Part shown: positions 314 to 40,182 of the stretch, in pieces
How positions within the stretch are numbered: the first letter of the stretch is position 1
Layout: the number at the start of each line of letters is the position of its first letter
Origin: Pseudomonadota bacterium
GTDB lineage: Bacteria; Bdellovibrionota_B; Oligoflexia; Oligoflexales; CAIYRB01
Assembly: GCA_031416315.1 (NCBI GenBank)
Contig: JANOTL010000138.1
Location: 98,131-162,130, forward strand
DNA length: 64,000 bases
Direction of reading: 5' to 3'
Translations under genes and position numbers: made by a program
The notes under the pieces: model-generated
Database searches by the model: none
The model's input: the letters and a program-made list of their open reading frames with translations, nothing else
Told to the model about the DNA's origin: nothing

Positions 314-1381
314 TCACCCTTTCTTCTGCCGCGGGTCGCTAGCCGCGGACACCGTCACACCCGAAGGAAGCTGGAGCAAGACGCAGTGAAAGCCGCCGCC
401 GTTATACAGCAGGCCGTCGGCGAGTACGAAGACTGTTTCATAACCGTGGCGCGCGTAAATTTCGCGAACCGCCCGCTCGTACCCGGGCTCGAGCGCGGCG
501 TCCGGATAATCGTCGTGGCCCCAGCCCCAACGCTCGAAGCGCGGCGTGATCGCCGTCTGGTTCACGAGGAGCGAGTTGGCGAAAGTGCGAAAGACGCCGC
601 GGTACGGCAAAGGCATCGGCAGCCGCTCGACCTTCAAGCTTTTCGCCAGCTCCCGCGCGCCGGCGTCCAGGCGGTCGCGCGTGCGCTCGAGCTCCTCCGC
701 CATCCGACCGTCTGGGCCCGCCGCGGTCTTGAGGGTCTCTGGCCCGAGCTGGTTGACGAGGACGGTGTCCTTCCCTACGACCTTGATCCACATGTCGACG
801 TGCGCATGCGGCGGATTGCGGAGGGTGATCGTCTCGCGGCAGCCCAGTGCGGCGCGCGTCGTGGGCGAGAGCTCGGGGGTCGCCGGCCCGACGCTGGTGA
901 TGCAGACGTCGCCGGCGACGAGGAGGTTGCCGCCGTCGAGCGCGGCCGGGAGCGCCGCGGCTTGGATGCCGACCGCCTTGCCGAGCGCCGTCGGAAAGCC
1001 GTCGTTGTCGGCGCCGGTGTCGTCGTATTTCGCGTCGAGGAAGCGCGGCGCCGCCGACTGTGCGTCGCGGACCAGGATCGGACCGTAGTCGCGTAGCCAG
1101 ATGTTGCCGTGCGGGACGGTGAGGAAGCGGAGGGCGAGGTCGGCCTTGCCGGCCTCGGCAAAAAGCGCCTTCCGGGCGGCGGCGTCGCGCGGCTCCGAAG
1201 TGACGATGATGACTTCCGCACCGGCGGCGGTGACGGCGGCGACCAGCTCGGGCGCGTGGTATCCGGCGGCAAAAAGCTCTTCGGGGAAGAGAACCGAGCG
1301 TGTGGGCTCGTATTCAGCGATGGGACTGACGGAACCGGCGGCTGCTGCGGAGGCGGCTGCGGCTACGAGGGCGACAAGCAC
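314..1381 (-). CDS. Agmatine deiminase / Porphyromonas-type peptidyl-arginine deiminase family protein, secreted
   Basis: N-terminal signal peptide MLVALVAAAASAAAAG. Family motifs WLRDYGP near the N-terminus and GGGFHCVLLQLP (GGGxxHC) near the C-terminus. Confidence 0.75.
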   Translation of the reverse strand: MLVALVAAAASAAAAGSVSPIAEYEPTRSVLFPEELFAAGYHAPELVAAVTAAGAEVIIVTSEPRDAAARKALFAEAGKADLALRFLTVPHGNIWLRDYGPILVRDAQSAAPRFLDAKYDDTGADNDGFPTALGKAVGIQAAALPAALDGGNLLVAGDVCITSVGPATPELSPTTRAALGCRETITLRNPPHAHVDMWIKVVGKDTVLVNQLGPETLKTAAGPDGRMAEELERTRDRLDAGARELAKSLKVERLPMPLPYRGVFRTFANSLLVNQTAITPRFERWGWGHDDYPDAALEPGYERAVREIYARHGYETVFVLADGLLYNGGGFHCVLLQLPSGVTVSAASDPRQKKG

Positions 1382-3386: not shown

Positions 3387-3513
3387 ATGCCTGATTAAAA
3401 TTAACTATTTGCGCCAGACCGGCCTCAACAAGGCTGGTCTGGTGGCCCATTTCAATCTAATATATGGGCCTGCCGTCCATTCCCGGACCCCGACTCACCG
3501 AATCAAGAGAATT

Positions 3514-5385
3514 ATGTCCAGCAATCTCCGCAACATTTGCATCATTGCCCACGTCGACCACGGCAAGACGACGCTCGTCGACTTCCTCTTGAAGCAAGCC
3601 GGGACCTTTCAAGCGCACGAAACCACGGCCGACCGCATGATGGACTCGGACTCCCAGGAGCGTGAGCGCGGCATCACGATCTCTGCGAAGAACGCCTCGT
3701 TCATGCTCGGCAACGTCAAGGTGAACGTCGTCGACACGCCGGGTCACGCCGACTTCGGCGGCGAGGTCGAGCGCATCATGGACATGGTCGACGGCGCCAT
3801 ATTGCTCGTCGACGCGGTCGAAGGGCCGCTCCCCCAGACCCGCTTCGTCCTCCAGAAGGCGATCGACAAAGGTCTGAAGATCGTACTCTGCATCAACAAG
3901 GTCGACCGCCCGGAAGCCGTCGGCAGCAATATGGTCTCCGAGTGCGTTGACAAGGCCTTCGACCTCTTCGTCGAGCTCGGCGCCTCCAACGAGCAGTGCG
4001 ACTTTCCGATCATCTACGCGTGCGCCCGCCACGGCTGGTGCACGGCGGACATCGACGCGATCCCGACCTATCTGGCCGGCGGGGGCGAGCGCAATCTCAA
4101 GGCGCTCTTCGCCACGATCCTCGCGATCCCGTCGCCGACGGCCAACGTCAACGCTGAGATGCAGCTCCTCGTCTCGAACATCGCGTATTCCGACTATCTC
4201 GGGAACCTCGCCTTGGGCCGGATCGCCGCCGGCAAGGTCCGCAAGGGCCAGGAGCTCCTACGCCACGGCGTGACCGAGACCGGCGCGCCCTCCGTGCAGA
4301 AGTTCTACGTCGCTCGCCTCCTTTCCTATGAAGGCATGAAGCAGGTCGAGGTCGAAGAGATCGGCGCGGGCGACATCGGCCTGATTGCCGGCTCTGACCA
4401 GCTGGAGATCGGCGACACCTTGAGCGGCCCGGCCGGCGTCGCGCTGAAGCGCATCAAGGTCGAAGAGCCGACCATGCGCATGATCTTCTCCATCAACACG
4501 ACGCCGAACTCCGGCCGCGAAGGCAAGGCGATCCAGTCGCGCGAGCTACGTCAGCGCCTGTACAACGAAACGCGCGCAAACGTCGCCCTGCGCCTCGAGG
4601 ACACCGAGCAGCCCGACCAGTTCTACCTCCTCGGCCGGGGCGAGCTCCAGTTCGGCATCCTGATCGAGAAGATGCGCCGCGAAGGCTTCGAGTTCATGGT
4701 CGGCCGCCCGAACGTGCTCTTGAAGAAGGAGGACGGCGTCCTGTTGGAGCCCGTCGAGCGCATGACCCTCGACCTTCCGGAGGCCTTCGCCGGCGAGGTC
4801 ACGCGCATGTACCAGCAGCGCAAGGGCACGCTTCTTTCGTATGAGGCGGCCTCCGCCGCCAGCACGGAAGAGGCTCGCGTCCGCCTCGTGATGGAGATCC
4901 CCACGCGCGGCATGCTCGGCACCAACTCCATGTACAAGACGGCGACGCGCGGCTCCGGCCTCATCAGCTCCGAGTCTGCCGGCTACAAGCCGCACTCCGG
5001 CCTGATCCAGCACCGTCTCACCGGCAGCTTGATCGCCGACCGCTCGGGCAAGACGACCGAATACGCGCTGGCCTCGGTGCAGGAGCGCGGCGTCTTGATG
5101 ATCGGCGAGGGCGTCGAGGTCTACGAGGGCATGATCATCGGCGAATGCGCGAAGGACAACGACCTCGTCGTCAACGCCATCCGCCCGAAGAAGCTCACCA
5201 ACATGCGCACGACCGGCTCGGACGGCATCACCAACCTCTACGGCGTCAAGCAGATGAGCCTGGAGAAGTGCATCGAGTGGATCGACGACGACGAGTGGAT
5301 CGAGGTCACGCCGAAATCGGTCCGCCTGCGCAAGAAGATCCTCGGGGCGCAGCAGCGCGGCTTGCGGAAGACCGAAAGAGACTAG
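3514..5385 (+). CDS. typA: Translational GTPase TypA/BipA
   Basis: [31 protein letters not shown] and NKVDRP G-motifs. Length ~623 aa and full-length collinearity with the EF-G-like fold. The start is trimmed to MSSNLRN. Confidence 0.95.
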
Positions 5386-5531
5386 CCCGATTCTCGAGCG
5401 GCGCGTCGGACAGCCGTCGCTGATGGCCGACAACGTCCACATCGACAAGGTCGCCGACAGCTACCGGCTTTTCCACGGCAAATACAAGCGCCGCCACGGA
5501 CTCTTCGAGTACCTGGCTCTCAAGCTGTGGA

Positions 5532-6701
5532 TCAGACTGCGGCGCTGACAGCGAGCGACTTCTCGCGGTCCTGCGCCCAGCTCTTTTCCCAGCCGTTGAA
5601 GACGAGGATCGCCGGATAGAGCGACACCGTCATCAGGACGAACAGCGGCAGGGCCAAGGCGAGAGGCAGCGTCTGCGGCACGAGCAGGGCGCAGGCATAA
5701 ATCGCCAGGATGTGGAAGACGAAGGCCGGCAGCGACTGCTTGCCGATCGTCGCGAGCGGCCGGAACCCGAGCGGCCGGCGCAGGTGGGGCCAGACGCCGC
5801 GGATCGCCATGCCGAGCGCGATGAAGTTGAGGAGCCGAAGCGGGGCCAAAGCCCGCACGGAGAGGTAGGGCTCAAGGCGCAGGGGCGGCAGCGGCAGCTC
5901 GGCGTGCCGCTGCACGAAGAGAAAGACCAGAAGGAGCGCGAAGGGCGCGGTCGTCTTCCAGGTCGGACGCGCCAGGAAAGCGGGCAAGCCGCCGACCCGG
6001 CTCAGGTTGCCGAGGACGAAACCCGAGACGAAGACGAGTTGCCAGGCGGCGAGCTCGAACCAGCCGAAAGACACGTAGCGGCTCGGGAAAACACGCATCA
6101 GCGCGTCGGCGACCTTGGCGGACGGGAAGAACTGCCCGGCGACCCAAAGCGCGCCGGAGACCGCCAGCGGCAGCCACAAAACGCGGCGTTTTTGGGCCAG
6201 AATCAACAAAGGAATGGTCGCCAGGAAAATCATATAGGCAGGTAGGATGTCGAGCAGCCACGGCTCGTTGACGCCGACGGCCAGCTCGAGGAGCGACAGA
6301 CCGCGGATCGCGCCGTATTCCTTGAGGACGGCGCTCGTCCACTCGGGCTGGGCGGCAAACGACCAGGCGACGGGCGCGATGACCGCGGCCAGCACGAGGT
6401 TGACCAGGAAGAGCCTGCGGATGCGACGGGCGACGGCGAGGCCGACCTCGCGCAGCGGTTTTCGGTCCGCCAAACGGCCATAAGCCATGGCGCTCACGAG
6501 GCCCGACAGGAAAAAGAAGCCTTCGGCGGCGCTGACGAAGCCGAACGGCTGGTAGAGGTGCTCGAGGGCCGGCTTGAGCATCTGCAGCGGCCAGAGGACC
6601 AGGTGGTTGGCCATCATGATCAATAGAAGAAGTCCGCGCAGGGCATCGATCTCGACGCACCGTGTCGATGGTTTGGTGGCGGCCGGGGTGGCGGTCTGCA
6701 T
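5532..6701 (-). CDS. Acyltransferase-3 / OpgC-like integral membrane protein
   Basis: About 10 predicted TM helices. N-terminal IDALRGLLLLIMM motif is characteristic of acyltransferase_3 / OpgC / DUF1624-type membrane acyltransferases. Confidence 0.55.
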   Translation of the reverse strand: MQTATPAATKPSTRCVEIDALRGLLLLIMMANHLVLWPLQMLKPALEHLYQPFGFVSAAEGFFFLSGLVSAMAYGRLADRKPLREVGLAVARRIRRLFLVNLVLAAVIAPVAWSFAAQPEWTSAVLKEYGAIRGLSLLELAVGVNEPWLLDILPAYMIFLATIPLLILAQKRRVLWLPLAVSGALWVAGQFFPSAKVADALMRVFPSRYVSFGWFELAAWQLVFVSGFVLGNLSRVGGLPAFLARPTWKTTAPFALLLVFLFVQRHAELPLPPLRLEPYLSVRALAPLRLLNFIALGMAIRGVWPHLRRPLGFRPLATIGKQSLPAFVFHILAIYACALLVPQTLPLALALPLFVLMTVSLYPAILVFNGWEKSWAQDREKSLAVSAAV

Positions 6702-6858
6702 GCGGATCCTCGTGAAAAGGCTCCGCTGCTTACACCCTGTAAGCCTTGTGGCTCAACGGCTTCCAGGATTCCCCTGCCCCGCCGCGGATTTAACGACCAC
6801 GATCGATCGCGCCAGGGGAGGTAGCGGACGCTCACGCCTAACTCTGTATTGCTAGTCC

Positions 6859-9225
6859 TCAATAATCTCGGCGGTTGTACAGCGGCGCGTTCTTACTCAC
6901 CTCGAAATCCCCCGAGATCAGGTCCTTCCCGTTCGCGTGCAGACGCACCTTCCACTTCCCCTCTTCCATCGGGCCGGGGGATTTGTGGAAGACGTGCGCC
7001 GACGTCCAGTCCTTGTCGAACTTGAACGTGATCTCGCGCTTTTTGCCGGCGGGTGAGGTCCATTCGTAGAAGACCGTGGTGTCGTCCGGGAAAGCGACGC
7101 CGAAGGTCCACGCGACCATGTCCTCTTCCGGGTTGACCGTCTTGATCTCGTGGAAGTCCTTCTTCTTCCCGCCCTTGAGCGAGCCGAAGGCCAGCTTCTT
7201 CGGCCCGGGCGTCGAAAGGTCGTCGATCGCGAGCGCCACGCCGGCGGTCTTGCGGAAGCCCCGCAGCCGGTCGCCGTAGTCCTTGTTGATCTTCAGGTAC
7301 CACTGCTTCACCAGCGCCTGGTACTCGGTGATCTTCTCCAGGTTCTTGTCGGCCAGGTTTACGAGCTCGTGCGGGTCGTTCTCGAGGTCGAAGAGCTCGG
7401 GCTCGAACGGGGCGACCTTCTTGGCGATGAACTTCCACTTCCCGTCGCGGAGGCCCCAGCGCTCGGGCTGCGCGTTCTTGTGGAAGTAAGCGATGCGTTC
7501 TTTGTAATTGGGGTCAAAGAGATCCTGGCCCAAGAAGTCGCGCTTCGCCGGGGCCACGGTGTTGACCATGGTCGGCGCGATGTCGCCGACCGCGCCGAGG
7601 ATCGGCACCGTCGTCGGGCCGTCCTTCTTGCGCGGGTCGATGACGAGGAGGAAGTTCCGGATGTTCTCGTCGTAGATGTAGTTCTTGTGCGTCATGTTCG
7701 TCGGGTGCCACTCGCCGAAGGCTTCGCCGTGGTCGCCGCAGATGAAGATGATCGTGTTGTCGAGCTGGCCCTTCGCCTTCAGCTGGTCGACGAGCTGCTT
7801 GATCACGGAGTCCGTGAAGTTCAGCGCGTTGGTGTAGCGCGCTTTCCGATCGACCGGACCATCGCCGGTGCCGGCGGGGACGAGCGCAGGGTAGTCCTTC
7901 GGGATCGAATACGGATGGTGCGTGCCGTTGGTCATGTACTCGAGGAGGAAGGGGCCAGACTGCTTGCTGGCCCACTCGATCGCCTTGTCCATGACCCGGC
8001 GCTCGTCGACACCCCACGAGTTCAGCTTGTTCGACTTGCGGAAGTCGTCGGTGCCGTCCTCCGGCGTGAAGCTCTCGTCCCAAGGCAGGTTCTCGTAGAC
8101 GATGCCGAGGTTCTCGGTGTCCATGAACTGCGCCGAGAAGAGGCCCGTCTTGTAACCGGCCTTGCTGAGCTCGCCGGGGATCGTCGGGCCCATGAAGGAC
8201 TGCTTGTACTCTTCGTAGACCGAGCCCCAGGTGATCGTGTAGCCACCGGTCAGGATCGGCACGTGCGAGCGCACGGTGCCCGGAAAGTTGTCGTAGATGT
8301 GCGTGAAAATCGTCTGGTTCTGGCTCAAAGAGGCGAGAAAGGGCGTCGTCTTCGGGTCCAGCTTGCCGTCCGGCAAGATCTGCTTCGAGCCGACCGACTC
8401 GAGGACGAAGAACACGATGTTCGGCTTTTTCGGGTCGGTGCTCCAGCGCTTCGGCGTGTCGCGCCAGCCGGCCGGGAAGCCGTTGACGTTCGAGGGCAGG
8501 CCGAACTTCAGCGGATAAGGATCGTAATTGAGCGTCGCTGCTTGCGCCATGTTCGCTTGCGGCGCCGCGCGGAAGAGGCTAGCGGTCACGGAGATCAAAG
8601 GATGCGCGCTGATGTTGTAGAGGTCGCCACGCCCGATCAGCATGCCGCAGCAGATGATCGAATAGACCGCCGTATAGACGTAAGGAACGCGGCCGTTCTT
8701 GAAGTAGAACTTCGGCCAGGGCTCGCCCTTCTCCTGCCGGCGCAGGATCTGCGCGCCGACCAGGCAGGCAAGCCAAAGCGCGACGATCGCGTTCGCCGAG
8801 AAGGCGACGCCGAACTCGCCAACGATCGAGTCCTTCAGGGTCTCGAGGCTCGTCTCGGCGCCTTCGATGAAGCCGACCTGATAGTGGTCGAAGAAGATCG
8901 TGTAGAAGATGTTGTTGAAGAGCATGTAGGTGAGGACGAAGACGTAGACCGAGACCGCGAAGACGCGGCCGAAAACGGTCTTCGATGCGGCCACGAAGAG
9001 CGCGGTGACGAGCCCCGAGACGATCAGGTTCTGCACCTGGCTGAGCAAAATGCGCGAGAGGTCCGAGAACATCGGGTAGAACGCGGTGCGATGCCGCGCG
9101 AAGTAGATGCCGTAGTTTTCGTACTGCAGCGCGAGGTAGAAGAGGAACGTCGTGACGAAGACCAGCGTACCCGTGCGCCAGATGTTGGCTGGAGCACGGG
9201 GCGATTTGATTTTCTCGGACATCAT
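6859..9225 (-). CDS. LtaS/sulfatase (alkaline-phosphatase superfamily) membrane enzyme with C-terminal extension
   Basis: Five N-terminal TM helices. Extracytoplasmic sulfatase-like domain with NIVFFVLESVGSK and ICGDHGEAFGEWHP metal-site motifs. ~200-aa C-terminal extension. Stop overlaps the start region of the upstream rSAM gene (9222-9225). Confidence 0.8.
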   Translation of the reverse strand: MMSEKIKSPRAPANIWRTGTLVFVTTFLFYLALQYENYGIYFARHRTAFYPMFSDLSRILLSQVQNLIVSGLVTALFVAASKTVFGRVFAVSVYVFVLTYMLFNNIFYTIFFDHYQVGFIEGAETSLETLKDSIVGEFGVAFSANAIVALWLACLVGAQILRRQEKGEPWPKFYFKNGRVPYVYTAVYSIICCGMLIGRGDLYNISAHPLISVTASLFRAAPQANMAQAATLNYDPYPLKFGLPSNVNGFPAGWRDTPKRWSTDPKKPNIVFFVLESVGSKQILPDGKLDPKTTPFLASLSQNQTIFTHIYDNFPGTVRSHVPILTGGYTITWGSVYEEYKQSFMGPTIPGELSKAGYKTGLFSAQFMDTENLGIVYENLPWDESFTPEDGTDDFRKSNKLNSWGVDERRVMDKAIEWASKQSGPFLLEYMTNGTHHPYSIPKDYPALVPAGTGDGPVDRKARYTNALNFTDSVIKQLVDQLKAKGQLDNTIIFICGDHGEAFGEWHPTNMTHKNYIYDENIRNFLLVIDPRKKDGPTTVPILGAVGDIAPTMVNTVAPAKRDFLGQDLFDPNYKERIAYFHKNAQPERWGLRDGKWKFIAKKVAPFEPELFDLENDPHELVNLADKNLEKITEYQALVKQWYLKINKDYGDRLRGFRKTAGVALAIDDLSTPGPKKLAFGSLKGGKKKDFHEIKTVNPEEDMVAWTFGVAFPDDTTVFYEWTSPAGKKREITFKFDKDWTSAHVFHKSPGPMEEGKWKVRLHANGKDLISGDFEVSKNAPLYNRRDY

Positions 9226-10874
9226 GACCCCGTCGCGTCGACCTGAGCCGGTACGGCCCTCTCGAGCTGGATTTCCTGCAGCTTGGCTGTCTTATCTAGA
9301 ATATAGCGCCGTTGGGTCGAGAAATGGAGGTACATCCCCATCAAACGCATCGCCAGGTCGAAGTGGTTCGGCCCGGCAAAAAGTGCCTTGAAGAAGTTCC
9401 GCCAGTAAAGCGGGCGCCATTCGGGATTTTTGCTCATCTTCCAAGAGATGATGGCCAACCCCATGATGTCCCGCTTCAGCTCCCAGAGGCGGGGGAGGCG
9501 CTTCTGCTTGAGCTTGACGAGGAGGCACTGGCGCAGCACGCGGTCGAAATAGACCTTCGGCGAGTAGACCGTGTCCACGACGTTGCGGAACTCGGCCAGG
9601 ATCTCGTAGCGATTTCGCGTGGTGATGAAGTTGAGGCCGGCGACCGTTTGGTCGGCCACCTCGAAGGTCTTGAGGTCGGCGCCGTGCGCCGTCGAGGCGG
9701 AGGTGTCGTTGGCGTCGATCAGCTTCGAGTCGAAGCCCATGAGCCGACCCTCTTTCTTCAGGCGGCGGGTGAGCTGCGTGTTGGGCAAGGCCACGAGGAG
9801 TCCGGTCATCGCGATCGTGACGGCCCCGTCCTCGATGCACTTGATGATCGCCACGTCCATGTTCTTCTTCTCGCCGTCGAAGCCCATGATGAAGCCGGCG
9901 GTCGGCATGAGCCCGCAGGCCATCATCCGGTGCAGGCGGTCCTGGATCGGGCGCACGGTGTTCTGCGACTTCTGGGTCTTGAGCAGGAGCTCCGGGTCCG
10001 GCGTCTCGATGCCGGTGAAGACGATCCGGAAGCCCGCGTTCGCCATCTCCTTCATCATCGGCTCGTCGTCGGCCAGGTTCATCGACGCCTCGGTGGCGAA
10101 GAAGAAGGGGCGGAAGCGTTTACGGTTCCACTTGGTCAGGGCCGGCAGGATGTTCTGGCGGATGTAGCGCTTGTTGCCGATGAAATTGTCGTCGACGATG
10201 TCGACCGAGCCCGTGTAGCCCGTCTTCTTGATCGCCTCGAGCTCCTTGATCACCTGCTCCGGCGATTTGATCCGCGGCTTTCTGCCGAAAAGCTCGATGA
10301 TGTCGCAAAATTCGCAGTTGAAGGGACAGCCGCGCGAGATCTGCAGCGCCATCTGGTTGTAGTCGTTCTTGTCGAGCAGGTCGTAGCGCGGGACCGGCGT
10401 CGTCGTCATGTCGGGCTTATCGGCGGAGCGGAAGAGGCCCTTCGCCTCGCCCTTGCGCCAGCTTTCGAGCCACATCGGGATGGTGATCTCGCCTTCGTCG
10501 AGGACGCGCGCGTCGGCCGGCGTGTATACGTCGGCCTGGCTCGACGGGTCGGAGCCGCCGACGACCACGAATTTGCCGCGTTTTTTCGCCTCGTCGATGA
10601 CTCTCAACGTGTTCATCTGCTGCGGCAGCATGCCGCCGGTCGCGACCAGCTCGGCCCAGGCCCAGTCGGCGTCGCTCACCTGGCGGCAGTTCATGTCGAC
10701 GAGGCGAAACTCCCAGTGCTGCGGGAAGATCGCGGCGACCGTGATCAGGCCGAGGGGCATGTTCGGCGTCTTCGCGCCGATCGCCTCGACCGATTCCTTG
10801 TAGTTCCAAAAGCTCCCGATCGGGAACTCGGGCTGGATGAGGAGGCAGCGGATGGGCTGGTCGGGTGATTTCAT
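9222..10874 (-). CDS. B12-binding (class B) radical SAM protein with DUF4070-like C-terminus
   Basis: Start trimmed to MKSPDQPIRCLLIQPEF (ATG 10872-10874, AGGAAA RBS). N-terminal Rossmann-like cobalamin-binding region. Radical SAM cluster motif CPFNCEFC. Long C-terminal domain. Confidence 0.85.
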   Translation of the reverse strand: MKSPDQPIRCLLIQPEFPIGSFWNYKESVEAIGAKTPNMPLGLITVAAIFPQHWEFRLVDMNCRQVSDADWAWAELVATGGMLPQQMNTLRVIDEAKKRGKFVVVGGSDPSSQADVYTPADARVLDEGEITIPMWLESWRKGEAKGLFRSADKPDMTTTPVPRYDLLDKNDYNQMALQISRGCPFNCEFCDIIELFGRKPRIKSPEQVIKELEAIKKTGYTGSVDIVDDNFIGNKRYIRQNILPALTKWNRKRFRPFFFATEASMNLADDEPMMKEMANAGFRIVFTGIETPDPELLLKTQKSQNTVRPIQDRLHRMMACGLMPTAGFIMGFDGEKKNMDVAIIKCIEDGAVTIAMTGLLVALPNTQLTRRLKKEGRLMGFDSKLIDANDTSASTAHGADLKTFEVADQTVAGLNFITTRNRYEILAEFRNVVDTVYSPKVYFDRVLRQCLLVKLKQKRLPRLWELKRDIMGLAIISWKMSKNPEWRPLYWRNFFKALFAGPNHFDLAMRLMGMYLHFSTQRRYILDKTAKLQEIQLERAVPAQVDATGS

Positions 10875-10962
10875 GTCGTGTTTTCCTCGCTTACGCCTAT
10901 CGGACGCGAGGCCTTCCCGGCTTGAGGCGGCCAGATCCGCCGCGCTTTGGTAGAATGGGCAA

Positions 10963-11736
10963 ATGCAGAGAAAACAAATCATCATGCTGGGCGCGAGCAA
11001 CCTGACCCGCGGCATCTCGACCGTGGTCTCCTGGCTCCGTGGCAACCTCGGCGGCCCTTTCGACCTGTACGTCGCCTTTGGCTACGGGCGCTCTTTCGGG
11101 ATCAAGAGCGGCGTCTTCGGCCGCGACCTCCCGAGCATCAAGGACTGCGGCATCTGGGAGGCGCTCGCCGCTCGACCGCCCCACGAGCGCGACGCTCCGA
11201 CTTACGCTTTGATCACCGACATCGGCAACGACCTTCTGTATCAAGTCCCCCCGGATGAGATCGCGCGCTGGCTCGAATACGCCCTGCGCAAATTTCGCGA
11301 GCTAGGCGCCAAGATCTCGATCGTGCAAATCCCGAAGGCCAACGTCGAGAAAGTCACGAGACTGCAGTTCTTCCTCCTGAACCGCATATTCTTCCCCGGC
11401 CGCAACATGCAGCCCGACGACATGCGCGCCCGCGCCATGCGCCTCGCGGCGCACGTCGAGCGCCTCGCCCGCGAATACGGCGCGACGCTCGTCGACCAGA
11501 AGCCCGAGTGGTACGGCTTCGACCCGATCCATTATAAGATCTGGTGGTGGCCGCGGGCTTGGGCCTCGGTGCTGGGGTCCTGGCAAGAGACCGCGCTCGT
11601 TCCCGTCGCCGCCTTCCGCCAGTGGCTCTACCTGCGCAGCCGGGGTCCGGCCCAGCGCTGGTTCTTCGGGCGGGAGCAGCGCTATGCGCAGCCGCACGGC
11701 CGCCTGAGCGACGGCTCGACGGTGCACGTTTACTGA
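10963..11736 (+). CDS. Hypothetical protein, SGNH/GDSL-hydrolase-like
   Basis: Divergent from the rSAM gene. N-terminal IIMLGASNLTRG (GDS-like block) and DIGNDLL (GNDL-like block). No signal peptide. Confidence 0.4.
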   Translation: MQRKQIIMLGASNLTRGISTVVSWLRGNLGGPFDLYVAFGYGRSFGIKSGVFGRDLPSIKDCGIWEALAARPPHERDAPTYALITDIGNDLLYQVPPDEIARWLEYALRKFRELGAKISIVQIPKANVEKVTRLQFFLLNRIFFPGRNMQPDDMRARAMRLAAHVERLAREYGATLVDQKPEWYGFDPIHYKIWWWPRAWASVLGSWQETALVPVAAFRQWLYLRSRGPAQRWFFGREQRYAQPHGRLSDGSTVHVY

Positions 11737-11750
11737 GCTGGAAGCCCACG

Positions 11751-13094
11751 ATGCAATCCACGCACGCCGCCTGGCCCGTTTCCGCGTTCGAGCACTACAT
11801 GCTCGCAGACGACCGGCCCGATTTCGCGATGACGTGCTTCGTCCGCTGCCGCTTCGCCGGCCACTTTGATCGTCTTCGCTTCGAAAGCGCGTGGCGCGAG
11901 GCCGTCGTGCGGCATCCCATGACGCGAGCCTTGGTGCGCGGCCCGCGGTGGGGCCGCCGTCGCGACCTAGTCTGGTATCTCGACCCGAACGCCGCCTTTC
12001 CGGCAGTGCGTTGGCGCTCCGCGAATCCTGGAGTCCGTCCCGGCAGCTTTCCGTCGGACCCGCGGCGTGGAACGGGCTTCTTGCTTTGGCTCGACGAGCT
12101 ACCCGAAGAGACCGAGCTTTTGTTCCAGTTCCACCATGCTGTCTGCGACGGGGCGGGAGTCTTCGGTTTTCTGGAGGACCTCTTGCTCGCGTACGATCAC
12201 GCCGGCGCCGGCGGCGGCATGACGCCGCGCGTCTTGGATCCGACGCGCTTCGAGCGCCGAGACACGATCGGCCTCGACGCGGCCGAGCTGAAGGCGCGGT
12301 TGCCGCTGGACGTAGAGGAGACGCGCAAGTTTTTTCGCGTCTTGCCCGCGCCGGTCCGGCGCCCCAAGCACCGCCCCGCGGGGCTCGATAGAGCCCCGGA
12401 CCTTGCGGCGATCGTGCGGCGCGTGCTGTCAGAAGAAGACCTTCGCGCGCTTTCGGCCGCCGGCAAGCGCCGCGGCGCCACGTTGAACGACGCGCTTCTT
12501 CGCGACTTCTTCCTGGCGCTCGACGACTGGAACGGCGCGCAGGCGCCCGGCGCGCCGCGGCCTTCGTTGCGGCTCGCAATGCCTATGGACCTGCGTCTTC
12601 CCGACGACTCGGCGATGAGCGCCGCGAACCTGGTCAGCATGGTGTTTCTGACGCGGAGCGCGCGCGAGCTCGCGGACCGCGACGTCCTTTTGGCCTCGAT
12701 CGCCGCGGAGACGGCCCGCGCCAAGCGTCATCGCATGGGGATCACGCTGATCCGGGTCGTGCGCGCCCTCGGCGCCTGGTTCGCCGCGCTCGTGCTGTTT
12801 TTTCGCTTGCCGCTGTGCAGCGCGAGCGCCGTGCTCACCAATTTGGGTCGGCCCTTCTCGGGCTCCGGCCTTCTCGACGCCGAGGGACGAGTGCGCTCGG
12901 GGTCGACTAGGCTGCTGTGGCTGGAATCGATCCCGCCCCTGCGGCGACGCACGCGGGTCGCTGTCTCCGTCAACACCTACGGCGGCAAGCTGCGCCTCAC
13001 GTTGCATTACGATTCGACGGTCTTCGGCGCGGAGCATGCGGAGGAGATGCTGGAGCGCTACCTCGTTCGCCTGCGGCAGACGGCGCGGATCTGA
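11751..13094 (+). CDS. Condensation-domain / WS-DGAT (PapA5)-like acyltransferase
   Basis: HHAVCDGAG matches the HHxxxDG catalytic motif of the condensation/WS-DGAT superfamily. 447 aa. Starts 15 nt after the previous gene. Confidence 0.65.
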   Translation: MQSTHAAWPVSAFEHYMLADDRPDFAMTCFVRCRFAGHFDRLRFESAWREAVVRHPMTRALVRGPRWGRRRDLVWYLDPNAAFPAVRWRSANPGVRPGSFPSDPRRGTGFLLWLDELPEETELLFQFHHAVCDGAGVFGFLEDLLLAYDHAGAGGGMTPRVLDPTRFERRDTIGLDAAELKARLPLDVEETRKFFRVLPAPVRRPKHRPAGLDRAPDLAAIVRRVLSEEDLRALSAAGKRRGATLNDALLRDFFLALDDWNGAQAPGAPRPSLRLAMPMDLRLPDDSAMSAANLVSMVFLTRSARELADRDVLLASIAAETARAKRHRMGITLIRVVRALGAWFAALVLFFRLPLCSASAVLTNLGRPFSGSGLLDAEGRVRSGSTRLLWLESIPPLRRRTRVAVSVNTYGGKLRLTLHYDSTVFGAEHAEEMLERYLVRLRQTARI

Positions 13095-13119
13095 GCCGGA
13101 AGCGATCGGTGCGATCGCT

Positions 13120-13677
13120 TCACTTGCAGTCGCGCCACGCGAGGGCGAGCTTGGCCGCCTTCACCATCGCGACGCGGCTCGTCGCGGCGGGCGTGCCTTT
13201 CGCAAGGGCGCCCAGGCCGAAGACCAAGGTCGTGGCTTTGCCGCACCCGCCCCAGCGCGGCTCGAGGCGGACCGTTTCTTCCTGAGCGTTGCGCTTCACG
13301 CCGTCGCCATACGCGACGACGCCGGATGAGGTCTCCGCTGCGCCCTGCAGATGCATGCGAGCCGTAACCTCCGCGCTCGCGCCGTTCGCCACGTCGGCGT
13401 CGACGGAAAAGGTGAGCGCGTTGCCGGCGAGCTGCTTTCCAGGCTCGGCGGAGATCGTCACCGCCGCCTCGCAGTTGGACCTCATGAGGCCGCGCGCCTT
13501 TGGGCCGCCGGCCGCCGCCTCGAACGCGGGCATCTCGACGACCAGCGCGTCGGGCTCGAGCCGGGTGACGGCGGTCTGGGCCGCTTTGCAGCCGCTGCCG
13601 GCGAGCGAGGCTTGGGTGACTTTCGGCTCCGCGTGAGCGGAGGTCGCGACGAGGATCAAAGGCAAGAGATGACGCAT
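13120..13677 (-). CDS. Secreted paralog A of a DUF4360-like family
   Basis: Start trimmed to MRHLLPLILVATSAHA (signal peptide). GSGC motif and conserved Cys pattern shared with the three downstream paralogs. Most diverged member. Confidence 0.55.
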   Translation of the reverse strand: MRHLLPLILVATSAHAEPKVTQASLAGSGCKAAQTAVTRLEPDALVVEMPAFEAAAGGPKARGLMRSNCEAAVTISAEPGKQLAGNALTFSVDADVANGASAEVTARMHLQGAAETSSGVVAYGDGVKRNAQEETVRLEPRWGGCGKATTLVFGLGALAKGTPAATSRVAMVKAAKLALAWRDCK

Positions 13678-13766
13678 GGGAGGCCCTCCGAAAAGAGGAC
13701 CCCCCGCGACCCAAGGGCCGCGGGGGGCAAGACGAGTCTCGTCCATTTACCCCTGTCTTCCGTCGA

Positions 13767-14384
13767 TTAGCAACGGCGCCAGCGGACGCCGTAGACGTGC
13801 GTGAGCTCGCCGTCGATCGAGTCCGTGGTCATGAGGCCGCGGGCGAAGCGGTTTGAAGAGGTCAGGCGGACCTGAGTGTTGATGTTGAGCGCACGAGTCG
13901 CGCCGCAGGGCGACCACACGACGGCTGCGAGGCCGAGGCTGTCGCGGATTTGGTAGTCTTGCTGCGTCGGGCCGCGGAAGTTGGAGCGCAAGGTCGCCGT
14001 CGCAGCCGAACCTTGGAAGTAGTATGCCGACTGTTGCGTGCCGGTGACGCCGGCTTCGAGGCTCGCGTATCCGCGGTAGTCGACGTCGAGGATGGAGTAG
14101 CTCCAGCCTTGCGGGAAATGCAGGTCGACGGCGATCTGGCAGTTCTTGCGGGACTGGTTCAGCTGGACGCCGGGGCCGACTTCGGCGATGTAGCTGTCGA
14201 AGAGCAGCGTGAAGGCCTTGAGATCTTGCGCGACGTTTTGCGAGACGGTCCCGGCGGGGCAGCCCGAGCCGGCGTACGAGATGCTGCGGATGCGGACGTA
14301 CTCAGGGCTCTGCGCGAAAGCGGACGAGCTGAGCATCGCGATCGCGAGTCCGGCTCCGGCTTTCAAAAGGTTCGAGAATTTCAT
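13767..14384 (-). CDS. Secreted paralog B of the DUF4360-like family
   Basis: Signal peptide. VRIRSISYAGSGCPAGTVSQNVA...KNCQ...WSPCG. About 80% identical to paralog D (15682..16306). Confidence 0.75.
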   Translation of the reverse strand: MKFSNLLKAGAGLAIAMLSSSAFAQSPEYVRIRSISYAGSGCPAGTVSQNVAQDLKAFTLLFDSYIAEVGPGVQLNQSRKNCQIAVDLHFPQGWSYSILDVDYRGYASLEAGVTGTQQSAYYFQGSAATATLRSNFRGPTQQDYQIRDSLGLAAVVWSPCGATRALNINTQVRLTSSNRFARGLMTTDSIDGELTHVYGVRWRRC

Positions 14385-14557
14385 TTGTGACGATCCTCCT
14401 CAGAATGTTTGTGTTCCGCATTTGCCAGAACGATGCGTACTGTGCAGTTCACATGCCACCGCGAAAAAACGGGGAAAAAGCGTGCGAACTCGCGCGACCG
14501 CGCCATTGCGCGTGAGCGCTCGCGGTAACAAAAAACGCTGAGACGGAAAAAGATGGA

Positions 14558-14627
14558 CCGTTCTGTTGTTCTGCGAGCGCTCTTCGCCAAGTCACAGAAC
14601 GCTTTGTTCTGCGAGTATATTGCGTTC
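14558..14627. promoter_or_regulatory. Cluster of CAGAAC/GTTCTG half-sites including the palindrome AGTCACAGAAC-gcttt-GTTCTG, in the divergent promoter between paralogs B and C
   Basis: GTTCTG at 14560, 14569 and 14606; CAGAAC at 14595; direct repeat TTGTTCTGCGAG x2 (14566-14577, 14604-14615). Lies 40-110 nt upstream of the paralog C start. Confidence 0.5.
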
Positions 14628-14669
14628 TAAACAATTGTTTCGTATCTTCAGCCCGAGGGGGAGACGAAG

Positions 14670-15311
14670 ATGCACGAGCAAAGCACTTGGAAAGAGCAAT
14701 TTTTCGCCGCGATCGCCCTGGCCGCCGCGGCCGCTATCGCCCAGGCCGCGCGCGCCGACGAAAGTCGGGAGCCTGAGTTCACCGACGAGCCGGCATGGGT
14801 CTCGGTCCTTAGCGTCGTCAAGGCCGGCAGCGGCTGCCCCGCGAGCTACGGCGACGCGGTCGTCTACGGCGAGTCGCTCCTCATCATTGATTATGATCGC
14901 ATGACCGCGCGGTACGGCGCGGGCCACTCCCTGCGCGAATCGCGCAAGACTTGCCAGCTCTCGATCGATCTCGACTACCCGAGCGGCTGGACTTACGCGG
15001 TCGAGGCCGTCTACGCCGAGACCTCGCTGCGCCTCCCGGCCGGCACGACCGGTAAGGCGGTCTTCTCCGCCTACTTCCAAGGGACGAACGAGACGGCGCG
15101 CGCCGAGCGCCCCTACTACGGCCCAGCTGCGAGCTACGACGCGATGGATCTTTACTTCGACCGAGCCGTTTTCGCGCCGTGCGGCCAGTCCCGCCCGTTG
15201 AACGTCAAGGCCGAGGTCCAAACGAGCGTAAGCCGCTACGGCGGCGGGGCGAGCCGCGTCGGCCTCGACGGCCCCGCGTACCTCCTTCTTCGCTGGCAGC
15301 GGTGCGAGTGA
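14670..15311 (+). CDS. Secreted paralog C of the DUF4360-like family
   Basis: Signal peptide. GSGCPASYG ... KTCQLSIDLDYPSGWTY ... APCG. Same architecture as A/B/D. Confidence 0.7.
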   Translation: MHEQSTWKEQFFAAIALAAAAAIAQAARADESREPEFTDEPAWVSVLSVVKAGSGCPASYGDAVVYGESLLIIDYDRMTARYGAGHSLRESRKTCQLSIDLDYPSGWTYAVEAVYAETSLRLPAGTTGKAVFSAYFQGTNETARAERPYYGPAASYDAMDLYFDRAVFAPCGQSRPLNVKAEVQTSVSRYGGGASRVGLDGPAYLLLRWQRCE

Positions 15312-15445
15312 GCCGGGTTCGTAAGGCCCCGCTTCGGGGACCCGTGCCGCGCGCGGGACCCCCATTCGGACAAAAGTATCCCACCTGGAGCGCCGCTCTG
15401 GCGGGGCATCTCAGCGAATCTCAGTGAAACTTAGCGAGTCTTAGT

Positions 15446-15495
15446 CCCGATCGGTCGCACAAGTAAACCGCGCGACCGGTCGGGATTCTGTCATT
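15446..15495 (+). terminator. Stem-loop after paralog C (probable terminator)
   Basis: 13-bp stem CCCGATCGGTCGC / GCGACCGGTCGGG (one G-U), 13-nt loop, followed by a T-rich ATTCTGTCATTT. Confidence 0.4.
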
Positions 15496-15681
15496 TGGAC
15501 GTACGGGCTCCCCGAGCAGCTTGTCGTTGCAATCCCCGAAACCCTTACTCCGCGGCGTGTTCGAAACATCGCCCCGTCAATTTCGCGCCCTTCGCTCACC
15601 TCTGGCACATCGTTTGCTCAAGGGAGCGTGTTCGCAACGCAGCGAGCTTCAACTTCTTCATCTCTCTTGGAGGACTCCGCA

Positions 15682-16306
15682 GATGCTTTCCGCTCTCAAG
15701 AACCTGGTCAAATTCGGCGCTCCCGTGGCTGTCATGGCGTTCGCTTCCGTCGCCAACGCGCAAGCGCCTTCGCATGTCCGCATCCGCTCGATCTCGTACG
15801 CCGGCTCGGGCTGCCCCGCCGGAACCGTCTCGCAGAACGTCGCGCCGGACCTGAAGGCCTTCACGCTGCTCTTCGACAGCTACATCGCCGAAGTCGGCCC
15901 CGGCATCCCGCTGAACCAGTCCCGCAAGAACTGCCAAGTCGCCGTCGACCTCGACTTCCCGCAAGGCTGGTCCTACTCCCTGATGACCGTCGACTACCGC
16001 GGCTACGCGGCCCTCGACGCCGGCGTCCGCGGCGAGCAGAGCGCGGCGTACTACTTCCAAGGCCAGTCGGCCACCGCGCGTCTCGGCACGACCTTCAGCG
16101 GCCCGACCGCCCGCGACTACCAGATCCGCGACACCCTCGGGATCACGGCTCTCGTCTGGTCGCCGTGCGGCCTTTCCCGCGCGCTCAACATGAACACCCA
16201 AGTTCGCTTGTCGGCCCCGGCCGGCCGCCGCGGCATGCTGACCACCGACTCGATCGACGGTCAGATCACCCACGTCTACGGCATCCAGTGGCAGCGCTGC
16301 CGCTAA
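15682..16306 (+). CDS. Secreted paralog D of the DUF4360-like family
   Basis: ATG 15682 with GGAGG 8 nt upstream. Signal peptide MLSALKNLVKFGAPVAVMAFASVANA. Near-identical blocks with paralog B. Confidence 0.75.
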
Positions 16307-16357
16307 TCTTAGCGGTCCCGCTCGTACCGGTTACCTAGAAGCGCCTGTGTGTCTTCC

Positions 16358-16395
16358 GAGCTCCGCGGCGCCCGCCGCGGAGCTCTTCGTTTCCC
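16358..16395 (+). terminator. Rho-independent terminator after paralog D
   Basis: 13-bp perfect GC-rich stem GAGCTCCGCGGCG/CGCCGCGGAGCTC with a 3-nt loop, followed by TTCGTTTCC. Confidence 0.55.
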
Positions 16396-16438
16396 GCCAT
16401 AAATATAATCCAGTTTATAAACAAACTCTCAGCCAAAG

Positions 16439-16461
16439 AGTCACAGAACACCACGTTCTTT
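16439..16461. promoter_or_regulatory. Second copy of the AGTCACAGAAC-N5-GTTCT palindromic motif, ~60 nt upstream of the TIGR02147 regulator gene
   Basis: GAGTCACAGAACaccacGTTCTT matches 16 of 16 core positions of the 14592-14611 site. Preceded by an AT-rich stretch (16400-16430). Confidence 0.5.
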
Positions 16462-16518
16462 GAGCTTGTGCGCGGCGCGATAATCCGCTAGATTCTGTTT
16501 CGGAGGCGCGAAGTCGGA

Positions 16519-17325
16519 ATGCAAGATCTAGCGATCAACGACTACAAGACCATCCTCAAGGAGGAGCTCGCGTCTCGTTGTCGGCAGAACCCGCGCTACT
16601 CGCTCAGGGCTTTCGCCCGCGACCTGAAGCTCGCTCCCTCGCGGCTTTCCGAGGTGCTTTCTGGGAAGCAAGGCTTGTCGCGCCCAGCCGCCGAGCGCAT
16701 CGCCAAGTCCCTCGGCTACGCGGCGGGCGACATCGAGCGCTTCTGCGACCTAGTCGAGAGCCTGCACGCCCGCTCGAAGAAAAACCGCGATTCGGCTCGC
16801 CTGCGCTTGAAGAAGGTCGGCGGCGATTCCAGCGAGATTCAACTGCAAGCCGACACCGTCAAGCTCATCGCCGACTGGTATCATTTTGCGATTCTCGAGC
16901 TCACCAACCTCGACGGGTTCCGCTCGGAAAGTAAGTGGATCGCGAAGCGGCTCGGAATTTCCGAGTTCGAGGCGCAACTTGCGCTCGACCGCTTGCAGCG
17001 CCTGAACCTCATCACCCGCAAGGGCGACGAGATAAAACTGAACCACCAACATGGTTTTCATGCTTCCAACGTCTCCACCGAGGCGATCAACACCTTCCTC
17101 GGCCAGCTGATGGCGAAGGCGCGCGATGCGCTGTATTTCCAGCAGGTAGAACGCTCGGAGATCAACGCGGAGATCGTCGCGATCGACCGCGCGAAGATCC
17201 CGGAAGCGAAGAAAATGATTCGTGACTTCAGGCATAAATTTTGCAGAAAACTCGGTGAAGATGAGGTCCGCGACGGCCTCTACTGCATCGCGATCCAGTT
17301 CTTCGAGCTGACCGAGAGGGGATAG
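16519..17325 (+). CDS. TIGR02147-family HTH transcriptional regulator (Fibrobacter/Bdellovibrio-type)
   Basis: 268 aa. N-terminal YSLRAFARDLKLAPSRLSEVLSGKQGLS HTH block typical of the TIGR02147 family. Stop is 4 nt before the next gene start. Confidence 0.65.
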   Translation: MQDLAINDYKTILKEELASRCRQNPRYSLRAFARDLKLAPSRLSEVLSGKQGLSRPAAERIAKSLGYAAGDIERFCDLVESLHARSKKNRDSARLRLKKVGGDSSEIQLQADTVKLIADWYHFAILELTNLDGFRSESKWIAKRLGISEFEAQLALDRLQRLNLITRKGDEIKLNHQHGFHASNVSTEAINTFLGQLMAKARDALYFQQVERSEINAEIVAIDRAKIPEAKKMIRDFRHKFCRKLGEDEVRDGLYCIAIQFFELTERG

Positions 17326-17328
17326 ACG

Positions 17329-18936: not shown

Positions 18937-18968
18937 AAAAAACGGGTGCAAACGGCGAAAAATTTCGG

Positions 18969-19001
18969 CATGAGACGTCCTCCCCCAAAGGACGTCTCAT
19001 G
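18969..19001 (+). promoter_or_regulatory. Perfect 12-bp hairpin enclosing the SD-like AAGGA and the ATG of the astacin gene
   Basis: CATGAGACGTCC-tcccccaaa-GGACGTCTCATG. The 3' arm ends exactly at the start codon (18999-19001). Confidence 0.45.
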
Positions 19002-23390: not shown

Positions 23391-23606
23391 GTCCGAACCC
23401 CCTGCGTTGCCTGAGCAGAGATTTTTTCGGTGGTAAAAATGCAAACTTTAAGCAAATTGCCAATGATTACCGTATACCCTTGCATTTTCAGGCTCTTCCC
23501 TTAAGATCCGGGCAAGACTTCCCCTGGTGTCACGTCGGTGGAGGTCTGTCCCAAACCCCGGTTTCGACGGGTCCCGCATCCGTGAAGCCACTGGAGGAGT
23601 TCGCCC

Positions 23607-31328: not shown

Positions 31329-31448
31329 GTCTCTAACGAAATACTTAGCTCCGCCATTCTAGCAAATGCGGGATCCTTCGCGTTAAGATGAGGAAACTCC
31401 TTCTGAACTCGCGACCCTTCCCCTTCCCCTTCACCGGAGCGGCTACCG

Positions 31449-32552: not shown

Positions 32553-32564
32553 GCGAACGAAACA

Positions 32565-33680: not shown

Positions 33681-33798
33681 AAAGTTTTACATTTCCCTTA
33701 CATGTTGAAACTCGCGTCCTATCCGGCCTAAGATAGGACTTTGTCCATTATCCCATTGATCGGTTGCGGAAACTCCAGCTCGGGCGTAGGGAGAGGCG

Positions 33799-35004: not shown

Positions 35005-35025
35005 CAAACTCTAAGGACCGACGTC

Positions 35026-40094: not shown

Positions 40095-40182
40095 GAGAAC
40101 CTCTAGAGCCTGCCCGTCGGCGGCGAATCCGTGTTAAAGATGGAACTTACGTATCTTCACTGATTCTTAGAGGAAGCTCAAC

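Follow-up and report, generated by a model that had tools for sequence, protein, structure and literature searches.

The combination of a B12-binding domain, a radical S-adenosylmethionine (SAM) domain and a DUF4070 domain is the architecture of HpnP and of several uncharacterised HpnP-like clades (PMC10697835; bioRxiv 10.1101/2025.07.29.667474). HpnP, which methylates a lipid, is the sole characterised protein with this architecture (PMC10697835). The three-domain architecture alone has been used to call producers of 2-methylhopanoids, and the HpnP-like clades confuse biomarker genomics (PMC10697835; bioRxiv 10.1101/2025.07.29.667474). The subject of the present analysis is a gene for a radical SAM enzyme (rSAM) of this architecture, together with the four genes around it, in a 64,000-nucleotide stretch of contig JANOTL010000138.1, referred to below as the window.

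The source genome has a G+C content of 65% and its lineage is apparently Oligoflexia-like. The locus occupies positions 5532-13094. On the minus strand, the class-B rSAM with a C-terminal DUF4070 domain (9222-10874, 550 aa) is followed by an LtaS/OpgB-type membrane phosphotransferase of the alkaline phosphatase superfamily (6859-9225, 788 aa) and by an OpgC-family/acyltransferase-3 membrane O-acyltransferase (5532-6701, 389 aa). An 88-bp intergenic region (10875-10962) separates the start of the rSAM gene from that of a divergent, plus-strand gene for a cytoplasmic SGNH-fold hydrolase-like protein (10963-11736, 250-257 aa). The next gene on that strand encodes a stand-alone PapA5/WS-DGAT-like acyltransferase of the condensation superfamily with an HHxxxDG motif (11751-13094, 447 aa). 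A first-pass annotation of this DNA had proposed that the five genes form a single locus for tailoring an envelope lipid or polymer. All five open reading frames were found where it had placed them, and the genes are of the types it named, as shown by the Pfam assignments and by independent checks of the two that score below threshold; some start sites were corrected.

The single locus did not survive comparison with other genomes. We favor, with a probability of about 55%, the reading that the locus is a mosaic in which a conserved, stand-alone HpnP-like rSAM is co-transcribed in this sub-lineage with an LtaS-type transferase, the accessory envelope genes being interchangeable and not part of one conserved system. 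On this reading, the rSAM and the LtaS-like protein would not depend on each other as partners, and no single product would come from the five genes.

Conservation of the neighborhood

The neighborhood was compared in species-representative genomes, a sample of 80 rSAM loci (42-62% identity) from Oligoflexales, Pirellulaceae, Kuenenia, Bacteroidota, Bradyrhizobium, Roseibium and others. When these loci were searched by tblastn, no gene for an LtaS-like, OpgC, SGNH-like or HHxxxDG protein was found within 10 kb of the rSAM in any of the 80. All-against-all clustering of the neighbors showed that the widest cluster was common to no more than 9 of 85 rSAM loci. The 124 immediate (+1/-1) neighbors fell into 156 Pfam families, the commonest of which, MFS, occurred six times. 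A universal partner of the rSAM was rejected because neither tblastn, nor neighbor clustering, nor the Pfam census revealed anything kept across the family. The same question was asked from the side of the LtaS-like protein. None of 12 orthologue loci (ten metagenomic, 31-37% identical, and two at 45-46%) had an rSAM, SGNH, OpgC or HHxxxDG gene nearby, and a partner was rejected here as well since the neighbors of these loci share nothing. Among 70 more distant sulfatase-domain loci, a single one (L120) has an rSAM, which is remote (25% identity) and 5 kb away.

The trio of SGNH-like, rSAM and LtaS-like genes was kept only in the nearest relatives, namely loci L081-L083, where the rSAM is 79% identical, and L084, where it is 77% identical. 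The SGNH-like protein encoded beside the rSAM is 60% identical in L081-L083 and 47% identical in L084, and was found beside the rSAM nowhere else. The LtaS-like proteins of L081-L084 are 62-63% identical to that of the window, and the gap from the rSAM gene is 19 nt in L081 and 4 nt in L084. Where the window has OpgC, the LtaS-like gene of L081 is followed by genes for a 197-aa protein, Exo_endo_phos, PAP2 and BipA, and L081 lacks the HHxxxDG gene. OpgC gave no tblastn match in L081-L087 or any other examined locus, and the HHxxxDG gene was absent from every locus fetched, so that at this locus both are unique to the window genome among the relatives examined. At 70-71% rSAM identity (L085 and a P0004 contig), DUF4360 genes abut the rSAM gene and the SGNH gene is absent. 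What follows the rSAM gene in L085 is not LtaS: the 280 bp downstream of it code for the beginning of a POT-type transporter. In L086, an Oligoflexales metagenome-assembled genome with an rSAM of 62% identity, the gene is one of a series read from the same strand, namely GT2, a 562-aa protein, rSAM, PMT_2, a 415-aa protein, GT2 and rml genes. This glycan-assembly run extends over 7134-21641 of L086; the PMT_2 protein has 994 residues, and four dTDP-sugar (rml-type) genes and a DegT aminotransferase are included.

The proposal of one five-gene tailoring locus thus largely fails on synteny, as OpgC and the HHxxxDG gene are present in no relative and nothing is conserved farther out. Conservation of the neighborhood was seen in part: three of the five genes occur together, in the nearest relatives only, and no such combination recurs in the 80 genome loci or the 12 LtaS-like loci. 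The first-pass annotation had suggested a comparison across Myxococcota and Desulfobacterota; the nearest named relatives proved to be Oligoflexales/Oligoflexaceae (Bdellovibrionota).

The relatives share a chromosomal backbone. GSIII, a Kelch protein, a DUF4423 regulator, DUF4360 paralogues and the rSAM are common to the window, L081, L084, L085 and L086, and BipA lies beyond the rSAM in the window and L081. The GSIII of the window is 88, 72 and 69% identical to those of L081, L085 and L086, and the corresponding values for the rSAM are 79, 71 and 62%. Since rSAM identity tracks GSIII identity, the rSAMs were taken to be orthologues at a fixed chromosomal site. The two gaps flanking the rSAM vary, with LtaS-like, OpgC, PAP2, Exo_endo_phos, PMT_2, GT2, rml, SGNH and HHxxxDG genes as fillers. 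The constant rSAM site and the variable envelope fillers indicate that the five-gene locus is one state of a variable envelope island.

In the window, the backbone includes four DUF4360 paralogues, at 13120-13746 and 13767-14384 on the minus strand and at 14670-15311 and 15521-16306 on the plus strand. They are followed by the DUF4423/HTH regulator (16519-17325) and the Kelch beta-propeller protein (17329-18936). The DUF4360/DUF4423/Kelch block (13120-18936) is syntenic in L081, L084, L085 and partly in L086, and is the most persistent neighbor of the rSAM in the lineage. The BipA of the window (3409-5385) is only 59% identical to that of L081 (16477-18393), compared with 88% for GSIII and 79% for the rSAM of the same pair. 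Such divergence is unexpected in this translational GTPase, unless the gene is a paralogue, which is possible.

The 4-nt overlap between the rSAM and LtaS-like genes reported in the first-pass annotation was read directly in the sequence. The rSAM stop codon (TGA, 9224-9222) and the LtaS-like start codon (ATG, 9225-9223) share the letters ATGA, the minus strand reading GGG TCA TGA TGT CC at this point. The two genes are probably co-expressed in the window genome. The gap between the LtaS-like and OpgC genes is 157 bp. The mechanical rSAM reading frame spans 9222-11045 and opens at TTG 11045. The 550-aa product that begins at ATG 10874 (MKSPDQP...) is the database record and aligns end to end with its homologues; ATG 10874, rather than TTG 11045, is most likely the start. 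The mechanical frame of the acyltransferase (11544-13094) was similarly shortened to a start at 11751, which matches the 447-aa product on record. Both divergent promoters presumably lie within the 88-bp region. No sigma-70-like match was found there, the promoter scan and the terminator scan of 5300-13300 gave nothing above shuffled expectation, and an Rfam scan of the window gave no match.

The radical SAM enzyme and its sister clades

The rSAM matches Pfam Radical_SAM (5e-17) and DUF4070 (5.8e-24). Its cysteine motif, C183-x3-C187-x2-C190, is invariant in the 18 homologues aligned, and the protein is soluble, with no transmembrane (TM) segments. The B12-binding family PF02310 was not matched by the window protein at E<=0.01; it is recorded in most homologues and is weak or faint where graded. 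The structural model (predicted local distance difference test, pLDDT, 86) consists of an N-terminal Rossmann-like domain, an rSAM barrel and a helical C-terminal DUF4070 domain. The best folds in the PDB were those of AprD4, the best of all, and of OxsB, MgmA, TsrM and CysS. AprD4 is not known to use cobalamin. The N-terminal beta/alpha domain of the model superposes on the cobalamin enzymes OxsB, TsrM, CysS and MgmA. From the model, this domain is predicted to be a cobalamin-type Rossmann domain, and cobalamin binding itself is likewise a prediction.

A search for homologues retrieved at least 8000 proteins, the best 120 of which are full length and 49-79% identical. No equivalog cut-off of NCBIfam was reached by the rSAM. 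The scores were 75 bits for ApyD (cut-off 750), 62 for the PhpK family (600), 47 for the ladderane-type TIGR04072 (360), 45 for HpnJ (578), 42 for HpnR (650) and 41 for BchE (481). The possibility was considered that the enzyme is a BchE, HpnR, HpnJ, PhpK-type P-methylase, TIGR04072, ApyD or slr0320 protein; all were rejected, with scores 6-12-fold or more below the cut-offs. The earlier expectation that the rSAM would lie outside the characterised non-lipid subfamilies was thereby upheld, as BchE, the ApyD family of ribosomally synthesized and post-translationally modified peptides and the P-methylases are all far below their cut-offs. The assignment to a subfamily by hidden Markov models that had been suggested excluded BchE, HpnR and HpnJ by score and yielded no named subfamily. 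A role as a hopanoid methylase was considered as well; no squalene-hopene cyclase signature (an open reading frame of the DxDDTA type) was found within 10 kb of the rSAM in 85 homologue loci, and no hopanoid genes are among the annotated genes of the 64-kb window.

The genes beside the closest relatives outside the window clade point to lipid synthesis. In a rough neighbor-joining tree, a clade associated with type-II synthase clusters is the immediate sister of the window rSAM clade, and a planctomycete clade is sister to both. The cluster common to L087, L170 and L002 (rSAM 58, 57 and 50% identical) comprises an acyl carrier protein (ACP), a FabZ-like dehydratase (DH), two ketosynthases (KS), a thioester reductase, a ketoreductase (KR), the rSAM, a 453-aa protein and a phosphopantetheinyl transferase. 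In L087, the rSAM gene overlaps the KR gene by 4 nt. In Pirellulaceae, the rSAM gene of L004, of L008 and probably of L005 is transcribed divergently from the gene for a giant type-I synthase whose domains run R-KS-AT-ACP-KR-DH (R, reductase; AT, acyltransferase). Overall, an ACP/KS/thioester-reductase synthase adjoins the rSAM in 6 of the 11 sister-clade loci that have context. In the searched literature, no description was found of a B12-rSAM with ACP/ketosynthase clusters or with planctomycete secondary-lipid clusters.

The type-II cluster extends over 4084-12029 in L087, 4098-13725 in L170 and about 1500-11000 in L002, which are three diverged organisms. Its FabZ-like dehydratase is a double-hotdog protein whose N-terminal half gives a weak AmcE-like match, and the L087 and L170 clusters additionally hold FtsX/MacB-type and LolA-like genes. 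The Pirellulaceae synthase gene occupies 716-9823 of L008 and 4229-9790 of L004, both on the minus strand; the N-terminal reductase belongs to NAD_binding_4, and the rSAMs are 50-51% identical to that of the window.

A lipid is a plausible substrate of the rSAM. Synthase clusters adjoin it in the sister clades, and HpnP is its one characterised relative in terms of architecture; by analogy, our best guess is that it methylates a lipid chain by radical chemistry. The reaction would take place in the cytoplasm and would most probably be a methyl transfer to an unactivated carbon. The recurrent pairing of the rSAM family with reductase-containing fatty acid synthase/polyketide synthase (FAS/PKS)-like clusters is the most interesting thread of this analysis, and is located outside the window. 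A broader proposal may be put forward tentatively, as a rather unlikely one. Lipid-modifying cobalamin rSAM enzymes may form a family, so far unrecognised, that spans several phyla and includes the rSAM of the window, the ancestral partner being a thioester-reductase-containing FAS/PKS-like synthase (type II in Oligoflexia-like and other bacteria, type I in Pirellulaceae). The window sub-lineage would then have recruited the enzyme to an operon with an LtaS-type transferase, which would decorate the envelope with phospho-head-groups in a new way, taking a radical-modified (e.g., methyl-branched) lipid as its donor or acceptor. If the rSAM does modify lipid chains, it would provide a handle on one large HpnP-like clade and would suggest that Oligoflexia, Planctomycetota and other phyla contain undescribed lipids of branched or cyclised form.

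Products of the adjoining genes and alternative explanations

The LtaS-like protein has about five N-terminal TM segments, the hydrophobic stretches lying between residues 59 and 198, and an extracytoplasmic catalytic domain of approximately residues 265-650. The match to Pfam Sulfatase (1.1e-35) covers residues 268-553. Among the NCBIfam models the protein comes closest to lipoteichoic acid synthase (3.8e-23), with 81.9 bits against a cut-off of 970, and the best sequence match in the PDB is Listeria LtaS (4uoo, 1.2e-18, aligned over residues 265-580). OpgB (phosphoglycerol transferase I, PRK12363) gave 1.5e-7 and 30.5 bits against a cut-off of 572, and EptA-type models gave 14-23 bits; no curated equivalog score was reached. 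The second half of the catalytic domain resembles choline- and aryl-sulfatases. In 26 homologues, E276, H436, H437, D498 and H499 are invariant, and the nucleophile position, T317 in the window protein, is occupied by Thr in 23 of them and by Ser in the other 3. We take E276, T317, D498 and H499 to be the equivalents of E255, T300, D475 and H476 of LtaS, with T317 as the nucleophile and the other three as metal ligands. The nucleophile lies in the motif PGTVRSH, not C/S-x-P-x-R, which places the protein not with the sulfatases but with the phosphotransferases or hydrolases of LtaS/OpgB/EptA type that use a Thr nucleophile. The family is rare, with 78 matches, about 60 of which cover most of the query. 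The host lineage is apparently Gram-negative, and to our knowledge teichoic acid is not known there. We propose that the enzyme takes a phospho-alcohol head group from a phospholipid of the membrane and passes it to an acceptor located beyond the cytoplasmic membrane; both donor and acceptor are predictions. The family also has a conserved C-terminal domain of about 130 residues (about 660-788), in which W722, P725, G756 and W758 are invariant; it has no Pfam match, and its sole match is a weak CrtC-like one (E 0.0056).

The OpgC protein, whose 389-aa product is in the database record, matches OpgC_C (2.9e-44; 151.9 bits, cut-off 21.4) and Acyl_transf_3 (9.4e-11), and has several hydrophobic segments, as expected of a polytopic membrane protein. 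From its family membership, it would O-acylate an extracytoplasmic glycan.

The two divergent genes encode the proteins that fall short of the Pfam cut-offs. The SGNH-like protein scores 31.3 bits with Lipase_GDSL_2 (3.6e-7), 1.6 under the cut-off of 32.9, and belongs to a family of 1087 homologues that, where named, are called 'hypothetical protein' only. The blocks GASN (S12), G42, GND (N89) and DPIH (D187/H190) are invariant in 25 homologues, and the AlphaFold model (pLDDT 90.7) matches E. coli TesA and a sialate O-acetylesterase with a Foldseek probability of 1.00. Neither a signal peptide nor a TM segment was detected. The HHxxxDG protein, with the motif HHAVCDGAG, scores 27.2 bits with Condensation (2.1e-6; cut-off 30.6), and its family has 1968 cluster representatives at E<=0.001. 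H128, H129 and D133 are invariant and G136 nearly so in 32 homologues, of which 30 match PF00668 and 9 match PapA_C. The family profile retrieved the condensation domain of the nonribosomal peptide synthetase PvdL (8.9e-21), PapA5 (4.9e-14) and WS/DGAT (1.2e-8) from the PDB. The protein lacks a signal peptide and has one hydrophobic stretch, at residues 333-365. Both calls of the first-pass annotation were therefore retained, the SGNH-like hydrolase on its invariant catalytic residues and fold matches, and the condensation/WS-DGAT-like acyltransferase on its invariant motif and family profile. The pair, an esterase or thioesterase and an acyltransferase by family, would act on acyl esters or thioesters in the cytoplasm. 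All five proteins of the locus are new members of known superfamilies, and the functions proposed for them are predictions from sequence.

Several other explanations of the locus were weighed. That all five genes build or tailor one unusual glyco-/phospholipid or polymer, as first proposed, is now quite improbable. The domain assignments on which it was built are all correct and compatible with lipid or glycan chemistry, the rSAM is outside the characterised non-lipid subfamilies, and the general lipid and envelope flavor of the region stands; what does not stand is a single coupled pathway. OpgC and the HHxxxDG gene are missing from every relative examined, the closest included, no partner is kept at greater distance from either the rSAM or the LtaS-like side, and the LtaS-like and OpgC genes are separated by the 157-bp gap. 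A smaller, young but genuine pathway of the SGNH-like, rSAM and LtaS-like proteins is a possibility to be taken seriously, albeit a doubtful one. The rSAM would modify (e.g., methylate) a phospholipid or its head group, the SGNH-like protein would trim or deacylate it, and the LtaS-like enzyme would use the modified lipid as a donor or act on it as an acceptor at the outer face of the membrane, with OpgC and the HHxxxDG protein as optional additions. The trio was kept in three assemblies from two distinct relatives while the neighbors turned over. The 4-nt overlap in the window is matched by short gaps in the relatives, and the rSAM and SGNH-like genes diverge over 88 bp. In L086, moreover, the rSAM again precedes a large polytopic enzyme (PMT_2) of a family that uses a lipid-linked donor. 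However, the trio was kept only where kinship is close, with GSIII 88% identical, and shared ancestry alone could explain the linkage. The trio is absent at 71% and 62% rSAM identity, each of the families mostly occurs without the other two, and the SGNH family, with its 1087 homologues, was never near an rSAM in the 80 genome loci.

Two further explanations concern the LtaS-like gene and one neighbor each. The LtaS/OpgB-like and OpgC-like enzymes could add phosphoglycerol and succinyl groups to a periplasmic glucan, as do OpgB and OpgC of E. coli, the rSAM being unrelated. The genes are adjacent on the same strand, the OpgC_C score of 151.9 bits is high above its cut-off, some LtaS-like homologues are named 'phosphoglycerol transferase MdoB-like' by JGI, and phosphoglycerol transferase I of NCBIfam is matched at 1.5e-7. 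This explanation is unlikely, however, as none of the OpgG/OpgH type was seen when the annotated window genes were inspected, OpgC is beside the LtaS-like gene in no relative or orthologue locus, and the OpgB model reaches 30.5 of the 572 bits of its cut-off. The other explanation is that the rSAM matures the adjacent protein. An rSAM gene coupled to a sulfatase-family gene is the classic arrangement of anaerobic sulfatase-maturating enzymes (anSME) such as AtsB, which make formylglycine, and here the two genes are translationally coupled. Nevertheless, the nucleophile is Thr (23/26) or Ser (3/26) in PGTVRSH, as in LtaS-type Thr enzymes, the rSAM, being of the B12-domain/DUF4070 type, has neither a SPASM nor an anSME match, and more than 80 rSAM orthologue loci have no sulfatase neighbor. 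With the LtaS-like protein not a sulfatase, the reading of sulfatase plus rSAM maturase falls. It was rejected for the missing formylglycine signature and the wrong type of rSAM domain, and its probability is very low indeed.

The preferred explanation remains the mosaic of a conserved rSAM site, a co-transcribed LtaS-type gene and interchangeable envelope genes. A number of observations weigh against it. The ATGA overlap and the short same-strand gaps in L084 and L081 look like a genuine operon, and a hint of selection for linkage is that the trio persisted as the genes on either side of it were exchanged. A connection to lipids or envelope glycans is plausible for each of the five products, a coherence greater than that of a chance neighborhood. 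The context at 62-77% rSAM identity is thin, consisting of three loci, one of them partial, and the rSAM tree is a rough one without support values. With respect to the chemistry, class-B rSAM enzymes include non-methylases such as AprD4, OxsB and BchE, so methyl transfer is only a prior for the window enzyme. The lesson of the locus is that a coherent set of envelope-enzyme domains in one genome is no pathway unless it recurs, and here it recurs in close relatives only.

Other genes of the window and comparison with known systems

An ether-lipid-type module is present at 33790-37816. It consists of a thioester/fatty-acyl reductase (33790-35004, plus strand; NAD_binding_4 6.6e-54; TIGR01746 at 225 bits, above the cut-off), an abutting alkyl-dihydroxyacetonephosphate synthase homologue (35005-36789, plus strand; PDB 2uuu, E 4.5e-132) and a short-chain dehydrogenase/reductase that is convergent to the latter (36764-37816, minus strand). 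Close to it are genes for a metallo-beta-lactamase-fold protein (32553-33680) and an LCAT-like hydrolase (40171-41289). Domains better known from eukaryotes occur in a run of genes at 18642-20222, 22128-23447, 29436-31358 and 31407-32552: a VHL beta domain (1.1e-10) in a metalloprotease-like protein, a homologue of TMEM43 (2.9e-51), a Tim44-like domain (2.7e-22) and, in an SPFH/Band-7 protein, a GYF domain. Additionally, a gene for a Porphyromonas-type peptidyl-arginine deiminase/agmatine deiminase (314-1381, minus strand; PAD_porph 1.2e-18) adjoins RsgA and BipA.

Each component of the locus has described counterparts. The rSAM beside a sulfatase-superfamily gene recalls the pairing of anSME (AtsB) with its sulfatase. 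It differs from that pair in having no formylglycine motif or SPASM domain, and the rSAM family is normally without a sulfatase. The LtaS-like protein shares with LtaS and OpgB/MdoB the N-terminal multi-TM region, the extracytoplasmic domain of alkaline phosphatase fold, the Thr nucleophile and the Glu/His-His/Asp-His residues; however, it is far under both curated scores and carries the extra conserved C-terminal domain. The strong OpgC_C match and polytopic membrane layout likewise resemble OpgC/MdoC, the succinyltransferase of osmoregulated periplasmic glucans, whereas no opgGH genes were seen near the window gene, which is not kept at this position in any relative. The SGNH-like protein has the catalytic tetrad and fold of TesA and the SGNH esterases, and the HHxxxDG protein has the motif and condensation-fold profile of PapA5 and WS-DGAT. 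In both cases the window protein differs in scoring under the Pfam gathering threshold and in coming from a large family annotated as hypothetical.

The rSAM has the same three-domain architecture as HpnP. This alone is insufficient to equate the two, as the HpnP-like clades have it too, and the hopanoid rSAM models HpnR and HpnJ give the window protein just 42 and 45 bits. Its fold superposes on those of CysS, TsrM, MgmA and OxsB, with Foldseek E values of 1e-12 to 1e-15 and query-normalised TM-scores of 0.47-0.60. Sequence identity to these enzymes is 13-17%, however, and their C-terminal domain is not the helical DUF4070 domain of the rSAM. The chemistry of the group is varied and includes methylation, ring contraction and dehydration. 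Within it, CysS is a cobalamin rSAM methylase whose PDB entries hold pantetheinylated substrates, a parallel to the ACP-cluster context of the sister clades of the window rSAM.

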